DNA from: Escherichia phage ECCR664
Length of the DNA stretch: 64,000 nt
Reading direction: 5' to 3' (one strand)
Sequence record: OL631257.1
Positions 52,588 through 62,295 of the stretch are shown piece by piece. The translations under genes and the position numbers were made by a program. Under the pieces are notes generated by a model, which saw only the letters and a program-made list of their open reading frames with translations, was not told the DNA's origin and did no database searches. Every line of letters begins with the position of its first letter. Within the stretch, counting starts at the first letter, position 1.

Positions 52588-53004
52588 TTCCTTAGTAAAT
52601 TGATTTACCATAGTATTTGTACCAAGTAGGACGTTGAGCAATTTTTTCATCTAAACGAGCTTGACTTATCGCAATGGACGCTTCGGTCGGGACATAATTA
52701 TTACGAAATTCGGCAGGGATGTCGGAAATATCTTGGACAGTCGTGTCCTTGATTTTGAAACCACGTTTCAAGCATTCAGCGATTAGCTCGATTTGACGTA
52801 AACGTAAAAATTCGAGTTTGTCGTAAAGAATGTTACATGACCTGTGCCTAAGATAAATGTCGGGGAGATTTTAAAATCCTTTACACGTTTACCGTTTTGA
52901 ACATGTTTACGGACTGCACCAAATATGCGTGGTAATTCACGATACTCAGCCATAAGATGTTGGTCGGTCAGTTCAGAAACAAGTGTTAAATTGATACGAG
53001 TCAT
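52588..53004 (-). CDS. denV: endonuclease V (pyrimidine-dimer DNA glycosylase) DenV; apparent frameshift
   Basis: [55 protein letters not shown] matches T4 DenV as recalled; frame lost after about 70 aa. Confidence 0.85.
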
Positions 53005-53031
53005 AATTTCCTCCAAGTAGTTGATGAATGT

Positions 53032-53061
53032 ATAGTATCAAAACCCTTGGAGGAAGTAAAC
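53032..53061 (-). promoter_or_regulatory. T4 early-type promoter upstream of denV
   Basis: Minus strand GTTTAC - 18 nt - TACTAT. Confidence 0.5.
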
Positions 53062-53062
53062 A

Positions 53063-53344
53063 CTATTTTTCTGAAGCGCCTGAAATATATTTTTCAAGAC
53101 GTTGTTTCATCAGCGAGCCGTTCTTAGCGATTTCTTCCGGTTTATCACACATACGCAACAAGGCTTCAAGCTTAACGATATCACTGGTGCGCTCAAATTT
53201 GCGAGTATCTATCTTACTAGCAAGTTCAGAAATACGTGCTAATAGACTTTCAGCTTCAACCAAAGCTGCACCTAGCTTAGTTGCAAATGTGTCAGTAGCT
53301 TCGTTAAGAATAGATTCTGATAAAAATTCACTATATGTTTTCAT
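53063..53344 (-). CDS. internal protein (capsid-targeted)
   Basis: ORF 53063..53359; internal start [10 protein letters not shown] resembles the T4 IP capsid targeting sequence. Confidence 0.5.
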
Positions 53345-53829
53345 ATATACGCTTTCCAAGTTCCTGTTTTAAATGTTGAGATTACGCGTTTCGCGCGATT
53401 AGGTGTCTGACGATACCATTTAGATTGGGCTAGATTTACTGCCGCTTCATCCCAACGTTTCTGTTGAAGCATACGAAGAGAATTAGTAAAACCGGCGACG
53501 CCTGCTACTCCCATTTGGAAGACCATATTGACCAATGCACATCGACGAACCGCGTCTAAAGAATCATACACCGGTTTAAGTTTAGCATTACCCAAGATTC
53601 CGCGAACGGCTTTATCAACATCTTCATTAAATAGCTTTTCAGCCTCATCAAGGGTAATTGTACCGTTACATTTACGGCCGACCATTCTGTCAAGTTCAGC
53701 TTTAGCTACGGCTAAAGACGGGTTCTTTGTTACCAAATGGCCTATGCCAATAGTCCAAAAGCCTTCGGTGTCTTTGTATAAAGACAGTCTAAGACCTTCG
53801 TCATTACGAAGCATTTCAAATATATTCAT
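53341..53829 (-). CDS. e: endolysin (T4 lysozyme), gene e
   Basis: [37 protein letters not shown] ... RCALINMVFQMG ... [21 protein letters not shown] matches T4 lysozyme as recalled. Confidence 0.9.
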
Positions 53830-53832
53830 AAT

Positions 53833-53854
53833 ACCTCCCACGTTTATAGGAGGT
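53833..53854 (-). promoter_or_regulatory. RBS-sequestering hairpin at the lysozyme start
   Basis: ACCTCC (53833..53838) pairs with GGAGGT (53849..53854); on the minus strand the GGAGGT Shine-Dalgarno lies 3 nt before the ATG and forms the 3' arm; loop contains TATAAACG (late-promoter-like). Confidence 0.5.
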
Positions 53855-53863
53855 ATTTATTAC

Positions 53864-54322
53864 TTATAGGAGGGTAGTGAGCACCTTATATAATGATTTG
53901 CCCATTACATATTCCCATTGAGAAGGTTTAATTAAAGCGAATGCATCAAATTCAGGAATCTGACGTCCGTCTGGGAATGTATGATAGGAATTACAAACAC
54001 TGTTTCTGAATTGCTCGTGCTCTACAGGGATGGTATATAGGAACAGATGAATATTCTTATTGTCTGAGTAATGATGTTCACCTAGGTCTTTCAGGAAGGC
54101 AGGGTCATATTGTGTAAACCCAGTTTCTTCTTCGCATTCACGAATAGCGGCTTCAATAGGAGATTCGCCAGGTTCGACACGGCCTTTAGGAATATCCCAC
54201 CGATGAGCTAAAGAACCTTTAGGACGAGAACCAGTTACACGTCCCATGAATAATTCTTTATCTTTTGTCATGAAGATAATACCGGCTGATAGTTCTTTCA
54301 CTTTATTTTTCTTACTCATCAT
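53864..54322 (-). CDS. nudE: Nudix hydrolase NudE
   Basis: 152 aa; Nudix box GRVEPGESPIEAAIRECEEETG (G-x5-E-x7-REUxEExGU). Confidence 0.75.
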   Translation of the reverse strand: MMSKKNKVKELSAGIIFMTKDKELFMGRVTGSRPKGSLAHRWDIPKGRVEPGESPIEAAIRECEEETGFTQYDPAFLKDLGEHHYSDNKNIHLFLYTIPVEHEQFRNSVCNSYHTFPDGRQIPEFDAFALIKPSQWEYVMGKSLYKVLTTLL

Positions 54323-54343
54323 CTCGGTCCCATGATTTGGCCA

Positions 54344-54562
54344 TTAATTCGGACATAAATTCTTCAATACGCGTTTCTTTAGATGGACTTTCACTATTAG
54401 AGACCGCGAGTTTGTAATCTGCAATAGGACGGAACAAATCAAGGTCCATATTAAGATCGTCTTTGATTTTTCTTCTGACACATCTTTATCATATGTGTAC
54501 AGATAACTATCACACGATTCTGATTTAATGTAAATTGCTATACTCATCTCAAATTCCTGCAT
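54344..54562 (-). CDS. hypothetical protein (72 aa)
   Basis: ORF only. Confidence 0.3.
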   Translation of the reverse strand: MQEFEMSIAIYIKSESCDSYLYTYDKDVSEEKSKTILIWTLICSVLLQITNSRSLIVKVHLKKRVLKNLCPN

Positions 54563-55035
54563 TCAGTTATAAAACGTTCAACTTCATTATTCTTGGCCTT
54601 TATCTTGTCTTTACGTTCCTGTAAACTACTTTTAACAAGATTAATAATGATGGCGGCGGTACCGCCGCCAATGATGCCACCAACAACACTTATGATACTA
54701 GATGCTAATAAGATAGCAATAATATCAACAAAACCGAAAGAACTAACCTTAGTACTAAAAAACCATACCGACGGTACAAATATAATCCATCCTGTTATCC
54801 ATTGGCACTTATTGAAAAACTTTTCAAGCTCAGCTTGAGTTGTTCGTATTACTTCATCGATAGGTTGATATCCATTAATGTATCTGTTCACGATAATACC
54901 TGCTGGCTGGTCGATTTTAAATTCTTGACAAATACGTTTCACTAAGTAGGATGGACATCCTGTCCAATCCACTGAATAGTACGAAATACCTTCATTGTCA
55001 TCGTCAATATTAGACCAATATGTTTTGTTAATCAT
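54544..55035 (-). CDS. membrane protein (163 aa)
   Basis: Two C-terminal hydrophobic segments with a Gly-rich IGGGTAAII stretch. Confidence 0.35.
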   Translation of the reverse strand: MINKTYWSNIDDDNEGISYYSVDWTGCPSYLVKRICQEFKIDQPAGIIVNRYINGYQPIDEVIRTTQAELEKFFNKCQWITGWIIFVPSVWFFSTKVSSFGFVDIIAILLASSIISVVGGIIGGGTAAIIINLVKSSLQERKDKIKAKNNEVERFITECRNLR

Positions 55036-55720
55036 TACCAGCCTTCCATAGGGAATTCCAGATAAACTTGGGCATTGACACGAATTTCATTGGTAATCTT
55101 TTTAACTCGGTCTGTATTACGAGATACACGTCCGAACCAACGCCATCCATTACTAATTGCACGAGAACCAGTGTGCCATGTTTGCCAATCGAACTGAAGA
55201 AGAGTACGGTCTGGAGCTTCCCATTTCTCTAGTTCACCTTTTTCAATTTTTCGAGGACTTCTTTGTGCCATTGGCGATAGATAAGTTCGCCATCAGGAAT
55301 CTGGCTGAACTCTGCAGTTCCTGTTGCAAAATGAGTAGGACACACATCAGCGTTAACAAGGCCAAGAATATGTTCAGACAAATAGCGAGGATTGTCATAG
55401 TCGGGTTGTCCTGCAGTAATAAAGTGTTGACCAACCGGAATATCCGGGCGTGGTACATCGTCATGGTGATAACCTGGGATAGCAGGGTACCAACCAGGCA
55501 TCAGCATGTGGACTCGTGAATCAAATACAACCTGGTCGGTGTTCCAATCATCTGGCAAGTTCATAATGAAGCTGCGAGTAATAGGACCGCCGTTATTATA
55601 AGCAAATTCTAAACTACAGTTGAAGAACATAGGCTCGTTCTTGATTTTATCATTAGAAATACCGCCGGCAAAACCACCTACTGCACGAGCTTGACTATTA
55701 AACACTTTAGAACTATTCAT
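55035..55720 (-). CDS. hypothetical protein; apparent frameshift
   Basis: ORFs 55229..55720 and 55035..55271 overlap in different frames; probably one gene of about 228 aa. Confidence 0.3.
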
Positions 55721-55754
55721 ATTATTTTCCTCGACATTCTTTAATGAAATTTTC

Positions 55755-56026
55755 TAGATTGGTAGATTCAATAGCTTTTTACGAGCTTCTGAGTGTTCTT
55801 CTTCTGACAATTTACGTTTATAATTGACCCAGACATTATGGTCGAAACCAGTCGTGGCATATAATAACAATGCTCCAACGAATAGCAAAAACGGCGATAA
55901 GAATACAAAACCAGGAACACCATCCATATCGTAAGCCTTTTGTAATACTGCAACAGAAAGAGTTACGTAAAAGGTGATGCAAGTATTGTTAAAAGACCAA
56001 TTCGGTTGGTTTCTGTTAATTTCATA
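55755..56026 (-). CDS. small membrane protein; apparent frameshift
   Basis: ATG at 56026 (MKLTETNRIGLLTILAS) downstream of a promoter; joins ORF 55768..55953. Confidence 0.3.
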
Positions 56027-56050
56027 ATATTCTCCTCATGTTTTAATAGG

Positions 56051-56083
56051 ACTACTATAATATAGCCCTATCAGTTTGTACAC
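56051..56083 (-). promoter_or_regulatory. early-type promoter
   Basis: Minus strand GTGTAC - spacer - TTATAGT with palindrome ATAGGGCT/AGTCCTAT. Confidence 0.45.
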
Positions 56084-56284
56084 TTATTTTGACATTTCTT
56101 CGATGTCACGACGATACCCATCACGAACTTCACGAAGAGCTTCAAGGCCACACATAGGCTCGATACCAGTAATGTGAACTTGATTAATCTGATACTCTAC
56201 ATCTTCTAACTGAGCGAAAACATAACGACGTTCTGCTGCACAACCAGGTTTAGCTTTACCGAAACGTTTATTCAAAGTAGTCAT
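56084..56284 (-). CDS. hypothetical protein (about 66 aa)
   Basis: ORF 56084..56302; likely start MTTLNKRF at 56284. Confidence 0.3.
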   Translation of the reverse strand: MTTLNKRFGKAKPGCAAERRYVFAQLEDVEYQINQVHITGIEPMCGLEALREVRDGYRRDIEEMSK

Positions 56285-56322
56285 TTTTATATCTCCATTC
56301 ACTCATTTGTTTTGATAGGTCT

Positions 56323-56352
56323 ATAGTATCAACAACTACAGACCTTGTAAAC
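56323..56352 (-). promoter_or_regulatory. T4 early-type promoter
   Basis: Minus strand GTTTAC - 18 nt - TACTAT. Confidence 0.5.
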
Positions 56353-56364
56353 AGTTTTGTGAAA

Positions 56365-56901
56365 TTATTTGAAAGGTTTTACCATATGGAAATTTTGTTT
56401 GAAACGTTTTACGTAATCGTCATGTCCTAAGCTTTGGTACATACTTACTACTTTGCTGTAGTTTTCCCAGGCGTATTCACGGAACCAACCGGAGGTGATG
56501 CTTGTGCAGACTTTTTCTAATGCCATCATGAAACTGGCTTCAGGGTTAATTTCAAAGTTATTAGGAATCTGAGAACGTTCTAATGCTAGTACACATGATT
56601 CTTCGTATACACCGGCCAATTTGACCATTTCTGGTAATGATTCGAACTTCTCGCGTGAGGTCATGACTTCAGAACCATCTTTCATGTAAAACGTATAAGC
56701 AGGGCGGTCTGTTAGTGCAATGGCTTCGTGAATAGTATCATGGTCATATGTATAGATGTCATCTTTAAAGAATGCGCTTTTAGAAGTGTCAAGAACCGGG
56801 TGAGCATAGTTCAAGGTTTCTTTCTGGCGTTTCAGCATAATTTCAGTAAGTTCATCGTTCAGTGTAACACCTTTACCACGAAGATACTGAATATGGTTCA
56901 T
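56365..56901 (-). CDS. hypothetical protein, possibly the C-terminal domain of the upstream nucleotidyltransferase
   Basis: 178 aa ORF starting 5 nt after the stop of 56907..57320 in another frame. Confidence 0.35.
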   Translation of the reverse strand: MNHIQYLRGKGVTLNDELTEIMLKRQKETLNYAHPVLDTSKSAFFKDDIYTYDHDTIHEAIALTDRPAYTFYMKDGSEVMTSREKFESLPEMVKLAGVYEESCVLALERSQIPNNFEINPEASFMMALEKVCTSITSGWFREYAWENYSKVVSMYQSLGHDDYVKRFKQNFHMVKPFK

Positions 56902-56906
56902 AGTCT

Positions 56907-57320
56907 TTAAAAGAATGGATTATTTTTCTTGAAACGATGGGACATCTTAATTGCAAGACACATCTCAGGAGTTGCCCAGTAAAACCCGTTCAAACGGTCT
57001 TTAGTCAAATTTTTCTTGGCATATTTTAAAAGGTCATAAGAAGACGTGAAATCTTCAGGAGTGAGTTCACCGACTAATTCACGGACATTAGTGATTGCCG
57101 GAACAATATATGCTTCAAAATGAGTTTCGCGTCCATTATGGAAGCATTTGAAAACTTGGACATCAGGGTTATCTTGGTGGACATATACACCCATCATTTG
57201 ATTTTTGAATGCATTCCAAGAACCTTGGTCTGCAATAAAGTCCCAGTCACTATTTTTGATAGCGTTAGAATCAATAAGTCCGTGATAGTGAAGTGCACGA
57301 GAACCAATAACTAACATCAT
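56907..57320 (-). CDS. Pol-beta-superfamily nucleotidyltransferase-fold protein
   Basis: 137 aa; VIGSRALHYHGLIDSNAIKNSDWDFIAD fits G-S-x(n)-D-x-D. Confidence 0.45.
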   Translation of the reverse strand: MMLVIGSRALHYHGLIDSNAIKNSDWDFIADQGSWNAFKNQMMGVYVHQDNPDVQVFKCFHNGRETHFEAYIVPAITNVRELVGELTPEDFTSSYDLLKYAKKNLTKDRLNGFYWATPEMCLAIKMSHRFKKNNPFF

Positions 57321-57344
57321 AATATTTTCCTCGGATTAATTAAC

Positions 57345-57595
57345 TTAAATTTCGCGACATGCGATATTATATTCATCCCAGAGGTCGTCATGTGAAGCCT
57401 CTACCAATGGAACGATTGTACCGTTTATGTCTTCATTATAAGGACAAATTGTACAGTGCGCATCTTCGAATCGGATGCCTTTGTGTTCAGATTTTTATAA
57501 CGCATATCGAATATCTTTGCAAACTTTTCACGAGTAATGGTTTTAGCAACCACTTTAGTTCCGATACTTTCGTAATAAATCATTGTGGACTCCAT
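57345..57595 (-). CDS. small hypothetical protein; apparent frameshift
   Basis: ATG at 57595 (MESTMIYYESIGTKVVAK) downstream of a promoter. Confidence 0.3.
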
Positions 57596-57611
57596 TTAAT
57601 TTGATAGGACT

Positions 57612-57641
57612 ACTATAACATAGCCCTATCTTGTTGTAAAC
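57612..57641 (-). promoter_or_regulatory. T4 early-type promoter
   Basis: Minus strand GTTTAC - 17 nt - TTATAGT with palindrome ATAGGGCT/AGTCCTAT. Confidence 0.5.
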
Positions 57642-57645
57642 TGTT

Positions 57646-57843
57646 TTAGCAAGAATAACTAGATGATACCCAGCCTTGAACAGTAATACTATTATTTGAT
57701 ACCGAGATTGCGTTCTGGAGATTCAGACCTGCGTTATCTTCAATCCATAATGTAACTTCTTCGCGTTCTTCTGTTGCAATTTGGAACAGGTTTTCCAGGG
57801 CAGCTACTGCCGTACGTACAGCACAATCTAATTCACGAGACAT
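57646..57843 (-). CDS. small acidic protein with GWVSSSxxC tail (paralog 3 of 3)
   Basis: 65 aa; C-terminus QGWVSSSYSC; N-terminus MSRE... Confidence 0.4.
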   Translation of the reverse strand: MSRELDCAVRTAVAALENLFQIATEEREEVTLWIEDNAGLNLQNAISVSNNSITVQGWVSSSYSC

Positions 57844-57852
57844 ATGATTTCC

Positions 57853-58124
57853 TTAGCAAGTGTGAGAAGATGCAACCCAACCACCAGTTTCGAGGCTCAG
57901 GTTATAGTCGTATTGGTAAACGTCGGCCCATTCAGCATAGCCGTTTTTGTACAACGTTCAAGATCGGCTTTAAGATGTCCTGGCGAATGATAGGTTCCAC
58001 CCATACCATAAGCTGGATACAAGTCGAATGTTGTGTTTTGTTTATCAGCAATTTCTTTGGCAGCCTCAATAGCTGCATAGATTTTTGCTACGGCTTCAGC
58101 CAGTTCGGTTTGTTCTTTAGACAT
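57853..58124 (-). CDS. small acidic protein with GWVSSSxxC-like tail (paralog 2 of 3); apparent frameshift
   Basis: ORF 57897..58124 (MSKEQTELAEAVAKIYAAIEAAKEIADKQ...); shifted C-terminus ends GGWVASSHTC. Confidence 0.4.
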
Positions 58125-58133
58125 AATGATTCC

Positions 58134-58439
58134 TTAGCACAACGCAGAAGACGAAACCCAAGCACCTTCAGTAATAACGTAACCATTACCTTCACGCTTA
58201 ACATCGCCACCATTATTTTCAATTTCATTTTTCATCCATTGGGATACGATTTCACCCTTAGGATAATAAGTACGACCGCTACCATAATCACCTACAGAAA
58301 ATGATACGGCATATTGGTCTGCGATCTTTGTTGCTTCTTCTTCGATACGTTCAGCTTGATTCAGAAGTTTATAAATTGCATCTGAAGCGGATTTGGCATC
58401 ATTAAACTCTGGTACTTTAATTTCAATAATCTTACTCAT
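58134..58439 (-). CDS. small acidic protein with GWVSSSxxC tail (paralog 1 of 3)
   Basis: 101 aa; C-terminus GAWVSSSALC; N-terminus MSKIIEI... Confidence 0.4.
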   Translation of the reverse strand: MSKIIEIKVPEFNDAKSASDAIYKLLNQAERIEEEATKIADQYAVSFSVGDYGSGRTYYPKGEIVSQWMKNEIENNGGDVKREGNGYVITEGAWVSSSALC

Positions 58440-58795
58440 TTTCTACATTCCTTAATAAAGTTTTCTATTGTTTCATTTTCACGTCTAGCTAGGAGTTCAT
58501 TATAACTAATCATTTGAGAAGCGTAAACCTTTTTATTTTTCTTGTTATGGTTTATAAAATCGTAGTAAAAATAGACTACAGTACAAAAGGATGCGATGGA
58601 TGCAAAGGCTTGGGTGTACCGTAAGTCCTGCCATTGGTCTGTGAATCCACCGGTGTTCCCTATAAATCCTAACACAACCCCGTCAATAAGAAATCCAACT
58701 AATCCAAAGGCAAATCCCATGCCAATACTCATAATAAAAATTAGAATGTTCTCACCAAGAGACGGCCATACGGTTAAGAGTTGAGGCTTTTGCAT
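58436..58795 (-). CDS. membrane protein (119 aa)
   Basis: Two TM segments; Gly-rich GFLIDGVVLGFIGNTGG. Confidence 0.4.
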   Translation of the reverse strand: MQKPQLLTVWPSLGENILIFIMSIGMGFAFGLVGFLIDGVVLGFIGNTGGFTDQWQDLRYTQAFASIASFCTVVYFYYDFINHNKKNKKVYASQMISYNELLARRENETIENFIKECRK

Positions 58796-59199
58796 CTTAT
58801 TTCCTTAACGAATTCCATAGCTTCTTCATATTCATACTTTTTAACAGCTTCGTCATACTGAGCTTGGGCTTTTGCGCACTGAACTTTCCACTCACGAACT
58901 CGAGCTCTGTGATGACGTCCTTGGTACCAATATCCCACCCAGTTAATAGGCATTAATAAAAACGGTACAATAAGTGGTGCGACGAACATTAATGAAAATG
59001 CTGCATCAGACGATATAACTTCACTAGAATCTAAAACAGCTCCTATAATCATAAAGATTAAAAATGCTAAAGCCAAAATAGGGCCAAATAGTACTTCGTT
59101 TGGGATTAATTTACGTTTGTATTCGTATGCCCAGGGCTTACTCGGCATGTATAGGGTTGGCTTTGACATATTCTCTACATTCCATAATAAATTGCTCAA
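58774..59199 (-). CDS. membrane protein (141 aa)
   Basis: Two TM segments then basic/coiled C-terminus. Confidence 0.4.
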   Translation of the reverse strand: MSNLLWNVENMSKPTLYMPSKPWAYEYKRKLIPNEVLFGPILALAFLIFMIIGAVLDSSEVISSDAAFSLMFVAPLIVPFLLMPINWVGYWYQGRHHRARVREWKVQCAKAQAQYDEAVKKYEYEEAMEFVKEIRCKSLNS

Positions 59200-59322
59200 G
59201 GATTAAATTGTTAGTGAAATTAGGACTAACAACCATAGTTTCATAAAGCGCATCAATAGCACTTAAAGCATCAACTCTTTTAAGCAAAGGCTTGCCTTCA
59301 TACATAGTTTCAGAATCGACGA

Positions 59323-59760
59323 TTAACGTAAAGTAATATTTTTATTATCGACTAGAACTTCTGTGTCAATATAAAACATATTAGACCTCAGAAGCTTATC
59401 TCTAAAACCGTAATAATCTTCTGAACGTTCACTGATATATTCCCATTCAGTGTTTAAACAACAAACAGACCACGTAGGAGCAACGAAATCAGTGAATCTA
59501 ATATCATGGTCTGCAACTAGTTTAGCAATAGCTCCGATATCATGAATCATAATACCTGGGGCTAATAAAGATTTTCTGCTATGGCTAGCCGTTTTCTCGG
59601 TGGTCTCATAAGAAGACGACCAGTACCATTTACGTCCAGTTGCAACATATCGTAATGAATCAACTAAAGACGTAGGTGGATTTACCTTATCTCGGAACTC
59701 TTCGAACATTGAGTCAATATCATTATTTTGGTTTCGCATGTTAACTCCTTTATTATCCAA
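59323..59760 (-). CDS. hypothetical protein (145 aa)
   Basis: ORF directly after a terminator. Confidence 0.3.
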   Translation of the reverse strand: MDNKGVNMRNQNNDIDSMFEEFRDKVNPPTSLVDSLRYVATGRKWYWSSSYETTEKTASHSRKSLLAPGIMIHDIGAIAKLVADHDIRFTDFVAPTWSVCCLNTEWEYISERSEDYYGFRDKLLRSNMFYIDTEVLVDNKNITLR

Positions 59761-59780
59761 AAGGAGGACCGGAGTCCTCC
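59759..59780 (-). terminator. rho-independent terminator
   Basis: Hairpin GGAGGAC-CGGA-GTCCTCC at 59763..59780 followed on the minus strand by UUUU. Confidence 0.55.
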
Positions 59781-59788
59781 GTATTATT

Positions 59789-60382
59789 TTATTTCAAAGA
59801 GTTAATATATTCTTGTACATCGGCAGAAGTGGTTTCGACACCGGCTGGAGTACCATTGAACGTTTCAACACGAGTCAGAGTGTCTTCGATATCAACCTTA
59901 GTCAGTGCAGCAATTTCAATCACATCATCAGCCGTAGAGATACCAAGGGCATTGGCTGCTCGAGTTTCACGAATGTATTCGAGTTTGATTGCCAGATTCT
60001 GACGAGCATCATCAAGTTCAACCACCTTACGAGCAATTTCAATTCGCATAGCGGCATACCCGTCAGCTTTTGTATTAAGTTGTTCGGCAGTTCGACGATA
60101 CAAAAGACCAAGCTTAGCATGCATGGTAACATCTTGTCCTTCAGCCAGGAGCTTACGAATTTCACGTTCCTTAGAAGCGGCTTGCTTATTCTTTTCAATA
60201 ACAAGTTCGCGAATACGTTTTTCTTCATTAATAGATTTAACAGAAGCCGTTTTTAGTTCTTTGATTTGGGTAATCAACTTATCTGCAGCTGCGTTATACT
60301 GTTCTTCGACAGTCAGATTTTTAGCCATAGCAGTACCCAGTTTAGTGCGGATGAATTCAACAAGTTTCTTCAGTGTGTTCAT
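59789..60382 (-). CDS. PspA/IM30-like coiled-coil protein
   Basis: ORF 59789..60397, start at ATG 60382; about 197 aa of heptad-rich sequence with the periodicity of PspA/Vipp1 proteins; by-eye only. Confidence 0.4.
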
Positions 60383-60423
60383 ATTATTACCTTTCAATTG
60401 GTGGTTTATTATCCAACGAGAGT

Positions 60424-60453
60424 ATTATACTCTGCTCTAAAGAGTTTGTACAC
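60424..60453 (-). promoter_or_regulatory. early-type promoter
   Basis: Minus strand GTGTAC - spacer - TATAAT inside the conserved block also seen at 30551..30597. Confidence 0.45.
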
Positions 60454-60701
60454 TTATTTGTACGAATTAATAATCTCTTCCATTTTATCCAGAACATGGA
60501 TATCGATTATACGAGGAAGTGCCGAAAGATTAGAACCGTCGAAAGATTTAAGGTCTTCCAAAATAATATTTTCAATGGCCTTTAAAGCTTCCGCAGATTC
60601 TGACGCAGAATTAAATTCAGGAATTTCTCCAAAAGACGTAAGAATGAACCAAAGTATTCTGCGGCGATTTCTTTAGCTTGTTCGATATCAGACTTAAACA
60701 T
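60454..60701 (-). CDS. small hypothetical protein; apparent frameshift
   Basis: Not in ORF track as one piece; ATG at 60701 with RBS GAGGAAA (MFKSDIEQAKEIAAEYF...). Confidence 0.3.
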
Positions 60702-60728
60702 TTTGTTTTCCTCATTTGTTGGTGGAGT

Positions 60729-60759
60729 AATCATATCACCATCCTTGGCGTTTGTACAT
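60729..60759 (-). promoter_or_regulatory. early-type promoter
   Basis: Minus strand ATGTAC - spacer containing CCAAGGATGG - TATGAT. Confidence 0.4.
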
Positions 60760-60985
60760 TATTTTTAATCAAGTTGACATAAAATTCTGCATCTTCAGGG
60801 TGCATGCCTTCACAGTATTCTTCAACCATGAACTTCTTAACAGCTTCATAAGGACCACTCAGATTAAGCTCAGTTGTCCAGAACTTGGAATCTTGGACCG
60901 AATCGATACGAACGTCAGGGTGACGGTTGCGAATAACTTCTTCGGTGTATTCATAATCAACGACATCAATACTAACTGTAGCCAT
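60731..60985 (-). CDS. hypothetical acidic protein (84 aa)
   Basis: ORF only. Confidence 0.3.
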   Translation of the reverse strand: MATVSIDVVDYEYTEEVIRNRHPDVRIDSVQDSKFWTTELNLSGPYEAVKKFMVEEYCEGMHPEDAEFYVNLIKNNVQTPRMVI

Positions 60986-61032
60986 TTTGTTTTCCTCTTG
61001 ATTTGATGTGATTACTATAACATAAACTTACT

Positions 61033-61196
61033 TAGATGTAAATTATTTCAACGTCACCTTTAGCGGCTTTATAACCTTCAGCCCAAGATACAACAGAGTT
61101 TTTATCTGAGGATTCAAATTCAGGCATTGGACTTTCACCAATATTCACACAGTATGTTTCTTCATTTTCATCGAACCAAATAATTAAAGTAGTCAT
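61033..61196 (-). CDS. small hypothetical protein (about 54 aa)
   Basis: Not in ORF track; MTTLIIWFDENEETYCVNIGESPMPEFESSDKNSVVSWAEGYKAAKGDVE... Confidence 0.3.
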
Positions 61197-61215
61197 TTTG
61201 TTTACTCCTTTGTAG

Positions 61216-61245
61216 TTGATAAGTCTATAGTATCACCATCCTTGG
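61216..61245 (-). promoter_or_regulatory. early-type promoter
   Basis: Minus strand ATGTAC - spacer containing CCAAGGATGG - TACTAT. Confidence 0.45.
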
Positions 61246-61277
61246 TGCTTGTACATCATTATTTTAATTTTTCCAAC

Positions 61278-61567
61278 TTAACAACTTGTAGTATCCTTCA
61301 TTCGTACGTGGTTTATCCCAAAAATACTAATATATGATTCGCTGTCAATAGAAGTCGCCGGGTTTTTCTCTACCGTAAGACCTTCACTTTCCAGCCATTC
61401 AATAGTATTTGCGCATAAATCAGAAGAACACCTCATCGGGAACCGGCAAGATTTTTCACCTTTAGCTGCAGTGTTATACATCTTTTCTAAAATACGCTTT
61501 TGCACGTTTTTAAAAATAGTTTCAGCAGATTCTTCAGATTTTTATTCAGTTCAGTGTAAAGACTCAT
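61278..61567 (-). CDS. hypothetical protein; apparent frameshift
   Basis: ATG at 61567 (MSLYTELNK...) joins ORF 61278..61505. Confidence 0.3.
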
Positions 61568-61594
61568 ACTATTCTCCTCATGTTTTAATAGGAC

Positions 61595-61624
61595 TATAGT
61601 AACACATCCAGGGAAGAAGTAAAC
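61595..61624 (-). promoter_or_regulatory. T4 early-type promoter
   Basis: Minus strand GTTTAC - 18 nt - TACTAT. Confidence 0.5.
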
Positions 61625-61646
61625 AACTTTTTCAGTAAGTTATAGA

Positions 61647-61671
61647 CCCCTAAAGGGGCCCGAAGGTCCCC
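61647..61671 (-). terminator. rho-independent terminator
   Basis: Hairpin GGGGCC-CGAA-GGTCCC(C) followed on the minus strand by UUUAGGGG; sister element at 43231..43257. Confidence 0.55.
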
Positions 61672-61679
61672 ATTCTTTA

Positions 61680-62295
61680 CTTACGAGTTTTTGCATACTG
61701 AGCAGCGTCAGCAGCCAAACGACCTGCCTGACGAAGTTTTTCTTTAATCGCATCGTGAAGTGGTTGAGTATACTTCAAACCTTCGATAGTCAAATAAAGA
61801 CGATAAAGGTCTGGGGTATCAAGGTTGTTGATATGTTGGCCATTACGAAGACTGTTGAATTCACGAACGAGTGAAGATGTATCGGATTCAATATCACGAA
61901 CAAGCGAAGATAGTTGTTTATATTTTTTTCCAGGCTAGAAGTATCAAACTTAAGAGCAGGAGCTTTAGGAGTTGCTTTTACTTCCGGCTTAGGCTCAGGT
62001 TTTGCTTTAGGGGCCGCAGGTTTAGGAACGGTAGGAGCAGGTTTTACTTTAGGCGAACCCGATTTAGCAGAAACACCACCACTAACAATATCTTTGAATG
62101 CTTTAGAAGCTCTGTAATATTCTTTTGGGTGGAAGTGTCGATACCGTACATGGCTTGAACGTTTTTGAAAAACTCTGTACTAGTTTTTGTACCAGAAATA
62201 GCATCGTAAGCAGCTTGCCATTTCTCTTTTGTCATACGTACACCGGCTTCGGTGATTACTTCCGTTTCGGCTAAAAATTCATTAAAAGTATACAT
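61680..62295 (-). CDS. internal-protein-like capsid-targeted protein with Pro/Ala/Lys-rich linker; apparent frameshift
   Basis: ORF 62044..62295 starts MYTFNEFLAETEV (capsid-targeting-sequence-like); continues in another frame through PKVKPAPTVPKPAAPKAKPEPKPEVKATPKAP to a structured C-terminus; late promoter upstream. Confidence 0.45.

Follow-up and report, generated by a model that had tools for sequence, protein, structure and literature searches.

Within a 64,000-nt window of Escherichia phage ECCR664 (sequence record OL631257.1; the window is the whole stretch of DNA that was analysed), three small acidic genes lie in tandem at positions 57646-58439. All three products end in the tail W-x-(S/P/A)-S-S-x-x-C, with the Cys as the last residue. 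Comparative sequence evidence establishes that they belong to a phage-only module of two gene families, in which arrays of small, folded, tail-bearing proteins are accompanied by one nucleotidyltransferase (NTase)-like enzyme, here called the partner. We tentatively favour, at something short of even confidence, the reading that the tail is a common handle by which the partner binds, and probably nucleotidylylates, the small proteins.

The stretch derives from an RB69-like T-even phage (Mosigvirus); over positions 57300-58800 it shares 97-98% identity with PhAPEC2, JS09, RB69 and more than 130 further genomes. The three-gene set lies on the minus strand, in the RB69ORF132c-139c block that Mosigviruses carry between e.2 and e.3. 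Comparison of this junction alone with T4 (NC_000866; locus L046 8653-9001; L numbers denote the loci that were compared) showed that e.2 directly abuts e.3 there and that the block is absent from the T4 junction, which may explain why the module escaped study. The array consists of the following genes:

58134-58439, minus strand: copy C, 101 aa, corresponding to RB69ORF138c+139c; C-terminus EGAWVSSSALC-stop; full-length family member with N-terminal helix, FSVGDYGSGRTYYP hairpin and tail; phrog_899 match with E 1.8e-22; AlphaFold2 (AF2) pLDDT 94.7.

57853-58124, minus strand: copy B, 90 aa after repair (see below), corresponding to RB69ORF137c; C-terminus GGWVASSHTC-stop; phrog_899 match with E 3.5e-19.

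57646-57843, minus strand: copy A, 65 aa, corresponding to RB69ORF136c; C-terminus QGWVSSSYSC-stop; minimal member with N-terminal helix, short strands and tail, lacking the YGxGxTYYP hairpin; phrog_4882 match with E 1.6e-36.

The intergenic spacers are 9 nt each (TGC-TAA-GGAATCATT-ATG and TGC-TAA-GGAAATCAT-ATG). They follow the general form TGC-TAA-GGAA(A)TCAT(T)-ATG-TCT, in which the Shine-Dalgarno sequence of the next gene overlaps the preceding stop codon. All three products are acidic, with isoelectric points (pI) of 4.1, 4.8 and 4.7. The original prediction, made from the letters of the window, had described three consecutive genes less than 10 nt apart with a common Cys-terminal tail. 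Both statements held, as the genes of 65, 90 and 101 aa are separated by the 9-nt spacers and terminate in GWVSSSYSC (copy A), GWVASSHTC (copy B) and AWVSSSALC (copy C), each followed by a stop codon. The start MS(K/R)E, also ascribed to all three, was found in two copies (MSRE and MSKE); the third begins with MSKI.

As recorded, copy B is split into 75 aa and a 33-aa tail open reading frame (ORF) in another frame. Alignment with RB69 and SA79RD located one base missing from an A6 run (plus strand T5 at 57944-57948, T6 in the relatives). With the base restored, copy B is 90 aa long and has the same length and tail as the annotated gene of the relatives. The shared tail, which had been suspected of disappearing on correction of the middle copy, is thus retained (GGWVASSHTC). 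Over the same 9 kb (53000-62000), A/T runs have lost single bases at 10 or more additional places relative to RB69 and SA79RD; the sites in this region include ~55780, ~55972, ~56912, ~57496, 57944-57948, ~59338, ~60630, ~60761, ~61261 and ~61538. The losses at ~56912 and ~57496 break the homologs of RB69ORF134c and RB69ORF135c, respectively. Because losses in nearby A/T runs break neighbouring genes too, the copy B frameshift is most likely a sequencing artefact caused by homopolymer under-calling. A programmed frameshift was considered and rejected, since the A6 run of the relatives is in frame and the other homopolymer losses break unrelated genes. Judged from these alignments, the assembly looks error-prone in homopolymers, and other apparent frameshifts in the window are to be distrusted. 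In the RB69 record (NC_004928; L001 4841-5147; window ~58235), a +1 insertion splits copy C into RB69ORF138c and RB69ORF139c. This split may be either a sequencing error in the 2003 record or a sign that copy C is dispensable in the laboratory strain.

The many homopolymer indels in the window, one of them inside copy B, could be taken to mean that the array is a single gene fragmented by indels, as the original prediction had feared, or that the tails are alike by chance. We give this explanation almost no credence. Three separate intact ORFs are present in more than 130 related genomes, and each is equipped with a start, Shine-Dalgarno sequence, N-terminal helix, tail and stop of its own. 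The family hidden Markov model (HMM) gave E-values of 1e-15 to 1e-27.

For the family as a whole, 1.84 billion representative proteins were searched exhaustively with a profile; this gave 61 relatives, nearly all of 75-120 aa and alike in layout. Tail residues were counted in 109 distinct family members, which had been chosen by HMM and not by tail. The terminal residue is Cys in 101/109 members. Trp stands exactly at -7 in 95/109, and 6 more have W at -5. Ser occupies -4 in 95/95 tails and -3 in 92/95, and position -5 is S, P or A. Across the family, no other part of the protein comes close to the tail in conservation, and the tail is kept in members that lack the hairpin (copy A and several in L013, L015, L021 and L026). 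The placement of the Cys as the very last residue suggests that the free C-terminus, or its carboxylate, is part of a recognised epitope. The family median pI is 4.45. An extra internal tail-like motif (W/D-x-S-S-G-C-S) was observed in the acidic linker of members P0031, P0035, P0052, P0054 and P0057 and at L034 1450-1695, L014 6619-6870 and L057 3702-3989, as if it were a repeatable unit. It is uncommon, and a strict regular expression matches 2/81 locus-derived members.

Within the window, copies B and C are related as paralogs at a significant level (BLASTP E 4e-6). Each aligns with the C-terminal positions 134-221 of the 221-position phrog_899 profile, and the two have their parts in common order, namely an N-terminal helix ending in IAD, an (F)xFxx-YG-x-G-x-TY-x-P hairpin, a variable acidic stretch and the tail. 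Copy A matches phrog_4882 over positions 1-65 of 65. Its alignment with the profiles of B and C (hhalign) is limited to the last 14 residues (E 1.8e-5, probability 78%). The AF2 model of copy A (pLDDT 81.9) contains a long N-terminal helix, short strands and the tail in the same order, and the central hairpin is absent. Copy C, modelled with 56 homologs, has helix 15-43, strands 47-49 and 56-59, helix 67-75, strands 79-83, 86-91 and 93-96, and helix 97-100. On these models, the small proteins are predicted to be confidently folded, independent domains without a solved structural relative. The Ser codons of the tails are unlike between the copies (TCA/TCT/AGT; TCT/TCT; TCG/TCT/TCT). Because AGT and TCN codons encode the same tail residues, the tail is held by selection at the protein level and is not a product of recent gene conversion. 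The local triplication that had been proposed is only partly correct. Copy A is so divergent that only its tail aligns with B and C, and arrays of 1-5 copies are old and general in the family and not an event of this phage.

No relatives of the small proteins were found in a pattern scan of 185,579 bacterial and archaeal genomes, and the family appears to be restricted to phages. PADLOC, Pfam and NCBIfam searches with the small proteins gave only sub-threshold matches at chance level. Two weak Pfam matches of copy C, Peptidase_S78_2 (E 0.0036) and E217_Gp32 (E 0.0092), were dismissed as noise; they lie below the cut-off and are absent from copies A and B. Literature searches found nothing on these genes, nor any account of the tail motif, of the fold, of the arrays or of the two-family linkage. 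The other suggestion of the original prediction, a diversifying anti-defence family, gained no support from these model and literature searches, which do not speak against it either. The entries phrog_899, phrog_4882, DUF7277 and DUF7275, the last two of which cover the partner, carry no function and hold no record of the tail motif or of the linkage of the two gene families.

The partner is encoded downstream of the array:

56365-57320, minus strand: partner gene, homolog of RB69ORF134c; 318 aa in relatives; split here by the 1-nt homopolymer loss at ~56912.

Its linkage to the small genes was sampled from both sides. In the first sampling, 32 IMG/VR loci (contigs up to 389 kb; identities 30-52%) were fetched by the small protein alone. 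Clustering of neighbouring ORFs placed a ~300-aa partner on the same strand in 32/32 of these loci, downstream of the array in 31/32. The next most common neighbour cluster was present in 7/33 loci; no third gene family is consistently linked, and the surroundings of the array-partner pair are otherwise scrambled. In the reverse sampling, which started from the partner, 1-4 tail-bearing genes were found immediately upstream in isolates from Otagovirus, Lazarusvirus and Phapecoctavirus (among the isolates are Otagovirus phiPsa267, Acinetobacter phage KARL-1 and Phapecoctavirus BI-EHEC), in 8 metagenome look-ups and in 4 contigs from metagenome-assembled genomes (MAGs). The array lies immediately downstream of the partner in Xanthomonas phage X1 and Stenotrophomonas phage BUCT608.

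Of the loci with a full-size partner, 49/52 carry one or more small genes, detected by HMM, on the strand of the partner. The number of copies per locus was 1 (17 loci), 2 (21), 3 (9), 4 (1) or 5 (1). From the last small gene to the partner start, a gap of at most 60 nt or an overlap was found in 18/46 loci. Hosts of the module-bearing phages include Escherichia, Acinetobacter, Pseudomonas, Xanthomonas and uncultured marine and soil bacteria. The suggestion in the original prediction of a shared C-terminal recognition or modification signal fits these observations, as the tail is the most conserved part of a large family that is tied by neighbourhood to one enzyme-like gene in unrelated phages.

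RB69ORF134c matches the Pfam domains DUF7277 (N-terminal, 265 bits) and DUF7275 (C-terminal, 96.7 bits; cut-off 27) and belongs to phrog_2141. Conservation was assessed in an alignment of 27 partner sequences (~40% identity), all of which (27/27) match both domains. In DUF7277, G6-S7 and D25-x-D27 are invariant and E69 is nearly so, and the alternating hydrophobic pattern and predicted strands are as in Pol-beta NTases. The protein conforms to the Pol-beta NTase pattern hG[GS], 10-20 residues, [DE]h[DE]h and a later h[DE]h, and several depositors have labelled it a nucleotidyltransferase. Invariant residues of the C-terminal domain are K125, S127, H128, R129, R165, H194, D195, H198, E240, E241, E248, R249, K270, S277, G278 and R281. 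The H...HD...H/E motifs of DUF7275 suggested an HD-phosphohydrolase, and hhalign comparisons with two phage HD proteins and Escherichia coli Cca gave nothing. One member of the 27 has a weak NTP_transf_5 match (E 0.11).

Partner proteins are abundant in phages: 733 phage records and at least 2,893 metagenome protein clusters contain them, and no function is attached to any. The 185,579 bacterial and archaeal genomes yielded them in 5 MAG contigs only, all phage-like. Contigs L057-L060 (Candidatus Saccharibacteria, Bacteriovoracales and 'bacterium' MAGs; 20-167 kb) carry both the partner and tail-bearing genes and are probably phage contigs that were mis-binned into MAGs. DUF7275 without DUF7277 was observed in Streptomyces, Gordonia and Vibrio (KVP40) phages (L041 2851-3597, L042 2809-3600, L043 2656-3417), with no tail-bearing genes nearby; the occurrence of DUF7275 alone suggests that the C-terminal domain has a life of its own. 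Genes of RNA metabolism were noted beside the partner at several loci. At L053 4414-6874, an Rnl1 gene overlaps the partner stop and is followed by a metallophosphatase and an AAA_33 kinase. An RNA ligase lies beside the partner at L049 1140-1787, Thg1 and RNase T at L050 1238-2077 and 4405-5040, and Rnl2 and a phosphoesterase adjoin a partner homolog in DSS3_VP1 (L040 265-1810).

On the favoured reading, the array and the partner enzyme would be made together in early or middle infection. The tail would be anchored in a cleft of the enzyme by its Trp and by the free carboxylate of the terminal Cys, and a nucleotidyl group would be transferred to one of the two invariant serines. Pol-beta NTases transfer nucleoside monophosphates to hydroxyl groups, which makes these serines the obvious acceptor candidates. 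With the variable bodies of the paralogs, one enzyme could serve several differently shaped client proteins. Inferred on this reading are NTase activity of the partner, its binding of the tail, the use of a serine as acceptor and a later role for the modified proteins. A more far-reaching version, which we regard as doubtful, is that the module is an undescribed tagging system of large virulent phages. In this case the NTase would recognise the free C-terminal tail and covalently nucleotidylate it (at a Ser or the terminal Cys) on 1-5 divergent small carriers or effectors of new fold and thereby switch or arm them during host takeover.

Several observations weigh against modification of the tail by the partner. 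The assignment of the partner to the Pol-beta NTases is drawn from its motif and from the labels of depositors. Queried with the whole protein, the PDB yielded no chain at E up to 10; the N-terminal domain by itself retrieved nothing of relevance, and Pfam and NCBIfam profile searches assigned the partner to no known NTase family. In the AF2 model of copy C, the tail is partly packed (strand 93-96, helix 97-100) and is not a free peptide. In the Mosigvirus lineage, array and partner are 537 nt apart, with an unrelated gene and a hairpin/promoter between them, and the distant partner homolog in DSS3_VP1 occurs without small genes. The broken copy C of the RB69 reference suggests that at least this copy is dispensable in the laboratory. 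RNA-repair genes beside the partner in four unrelated phages hint at an RNA substrate, which they would fit better than a protein substrate.

Precedents for modification of a protein client are available. In the GlnD-PII and GlnE-glutamine synthetase systems, proteins are nucleotidylylated by Pol-beta-type NTases. The module resembles them in combining an NTase of Pol-beta fold (here by motif), which carries a further conserved domain, with a small, folded client of ~100 aa, and in the likely use of a hydroxyl acceptor. It differs in that the small proteins do not have the ferredoxin-like fold of PII. In the type VII toxin-antitoxin system HepT-MntA, a minimal NTase AMPylates its partner. There, as here, a G-S...D-x-D NTase is encoded beside, and translationally coupled with, the small protein that it would modify. 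The small proteins, however, are not HEPN proteins: copy C lacks any His, and copies A and B lack R-x4-6-H. In addition, the NTase described here has an extra conserved domain of 200 aa, is absent from bacterial chromosomes and has multiple partner paralogs.

The most serious alternative, which we nevertheless consider improbable, is that the partner works on RNA as an NTase for 3'-end repair or tailing, similar to RlaP or CCA-adding enzymes, and that the small acidic proteins are its unmodified regulators. They could be pseudo-substrate inhibitors, nucleic-acid mimics or interchangeable specificity subunits, with the tail plugging the cleft. RlaP (PF10127; T4 NrdC.11) is an RNA-ligase-associated Pol-beta NTase that adds 1-2 nucleotides to damaged RNA (bioRxiv 10.64898/2025.12.29.696909; PMC7824862). 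It has the same two-domain layout as the partner, with an N-terminal NTase and a C-terminal helical domain in ~300 aa, is common in large phages and is sometimes encoded beside RNA ligase/Pnk genes. The RNA-repair genes that adjoin the partner in four loci (L053, L049, L050 and DSS3_VP1), the acidity of the small proteins, and the occurrence of the distant DSS3_VP1 homolog and of DUF7275-only proteins without small genes all point in this direction. Such neighbours are confined to a minority of loci, however, no third family is consistently linked to the pair, and the PF10127 model is matched by 0/27 partner sequences even at E up to 10. RlaP has not been described with tail-bearing small proteins, and a tail that merely plugs the active site would leave both the 1-5 divergent paralogs and the invariance of the serines without a clear explanation.

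It is unlikely that the small proteins act alone as host-takeover or anti-defence factors, with the tail binding a conserved host target (a protease, a chaperone or a C-terminus-binding pocket) and the adjacency of the partner reflecting shared regulation. In favour of this, the genes occupy a hyperplastic early/middle region of a T-even-type genome, one that is absent from T4 between e.2 and e.3, and their small size, acidity, tandem duplication and divergent bodies recall many phage counter-defence proteins. Yet the tail is invariant although the hosts are very diverse, the sole constant partner is phage-encoded while the neighbourhoods around the pair are otherwise scrambled, and no PADLOC or anti-defence model was matched. 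Far less credible still is a system resembling the ribosomally synthesized and post-translationally modified peptides (RiPPs), in which the folded body would be a leader and the tail a core peptide. The core could mature like aminovinyl-cysteine precursors, which S-x-x-C-COOH resembles, or it could undergo phosphorylation or nucleotidylation at its C-terminal serines and be set free as a small bioactive peptide. Prochlorosins form a tandem precursor array served by the single enzyme ProcM, epidermin has the spacing Ser19...Cys22, and lasso-peptide clusters encode C-terminal Ser kinases or NTase-fold enzymes. The arrays likewise consist of divergent tandem small genes beside a single enzyme-like gene, the short C-terminal motif with Ser at -3 and terminal Cys (S-x-x-C-COOH) is found in 92/95 tails, and some members have extra internal W-x-x-S-G-C-S copies in the acidic linker. 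RiPP arrays, however, keep the recognition sequence and vary the core, whereas here the supposed core, and not the leader, is the invariant part. The bodies are confidently folded (pLDDT 95 and 82) with the tail partly packed. Consistent linkage to a dehydratase, flavin decarboxylase, protease or exporter was not found; aminovinyl-cysteine precursors would be accompanied by a linked dehydratase and an HFCD flavoprotein decarboxylase. Lytic phages also have no obvious use for such a product. As the module belongs with none of GlnD-PII, MntA-HepT or the RiPP arrays, it was rated as lying outside the known kinds of system, with handling of the tail by the partner as its putative function.

The following further features lie between the array and the partner or upstream of copy C:

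57345-57583, minus strand: RB69ORF135c homolog, 79 aa in relatives, phrog_3723; frameshifted here at ~57496; between array and partner.

57603-57630, minus strand: hairpin of 28 nt, GATAGGGCTA...TAGTCCTATC, after copy A.

Within 57603-57640, minus strand: promoter-like TTTACA-17-TATAGT, overlapping the hairpin and followed by ORF135c and the partner gene.

58499-58527, minus strand: promoter-like TTTACG-17-TATAAT (10/12 matches), inside e.3 and ~60 nt upstream of copy C.

The RB69ORF135c homolog has no tail motif, is lineage-specific and is probably not part of the module. SA79RD annotates the site equivalent to 58499-58527 as a T4-type middle promoter and the equivalent of 57603-57640 as a rho-independent terminator, though the stem is not followed by a U-run. 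Possible roles of the 57603-57640 element are those of an attenuator, a processing site or an early promoter that serves ORF135c and the partner. Taken as promoters, the two sites would fit early or middle expression and not a role in virion structure. For the e.4 homolog (58774-59199; L003 2981-3376), two GenBank records give 'sulfurtransferase', and the product looks like a membrane protein. As a possible pointer to the terminal Cys being a sulfur carrier, the label was pursued and rejected, and it seems unfounded; Pfam returned nothing, and PHROGs places e.4 in a family without function.

If the proposed roles of tail and partner hold, these genes form a widespread phage-only two-component module without a described function. 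Its small proteins represent a fold without a solved structural relative, and their C-terminal motif is among the most invariant noticed in phage proteins. The eight-residue tail and a candidate enzyme with an obvious putative catalytic D-x-D provide an experimental handle. Databases already list the ORFs among hypothetical proteins, with PHROG and DUF entries. For annotation, a small acidic ORF that ends in W-x-S-S-x-x-C beside a DUF7277-DUF7275 gene can be treated as one module with it, a rule under which many 'hypothetical' genes of T-even-like, rV5-like, Otagovirus and jumbo phages would fall. Through it, a novel post-translational modification may come to light, or a novel mechanism by which an enzyme that acts on RNA or nucleotides is regulated in the course of infection.

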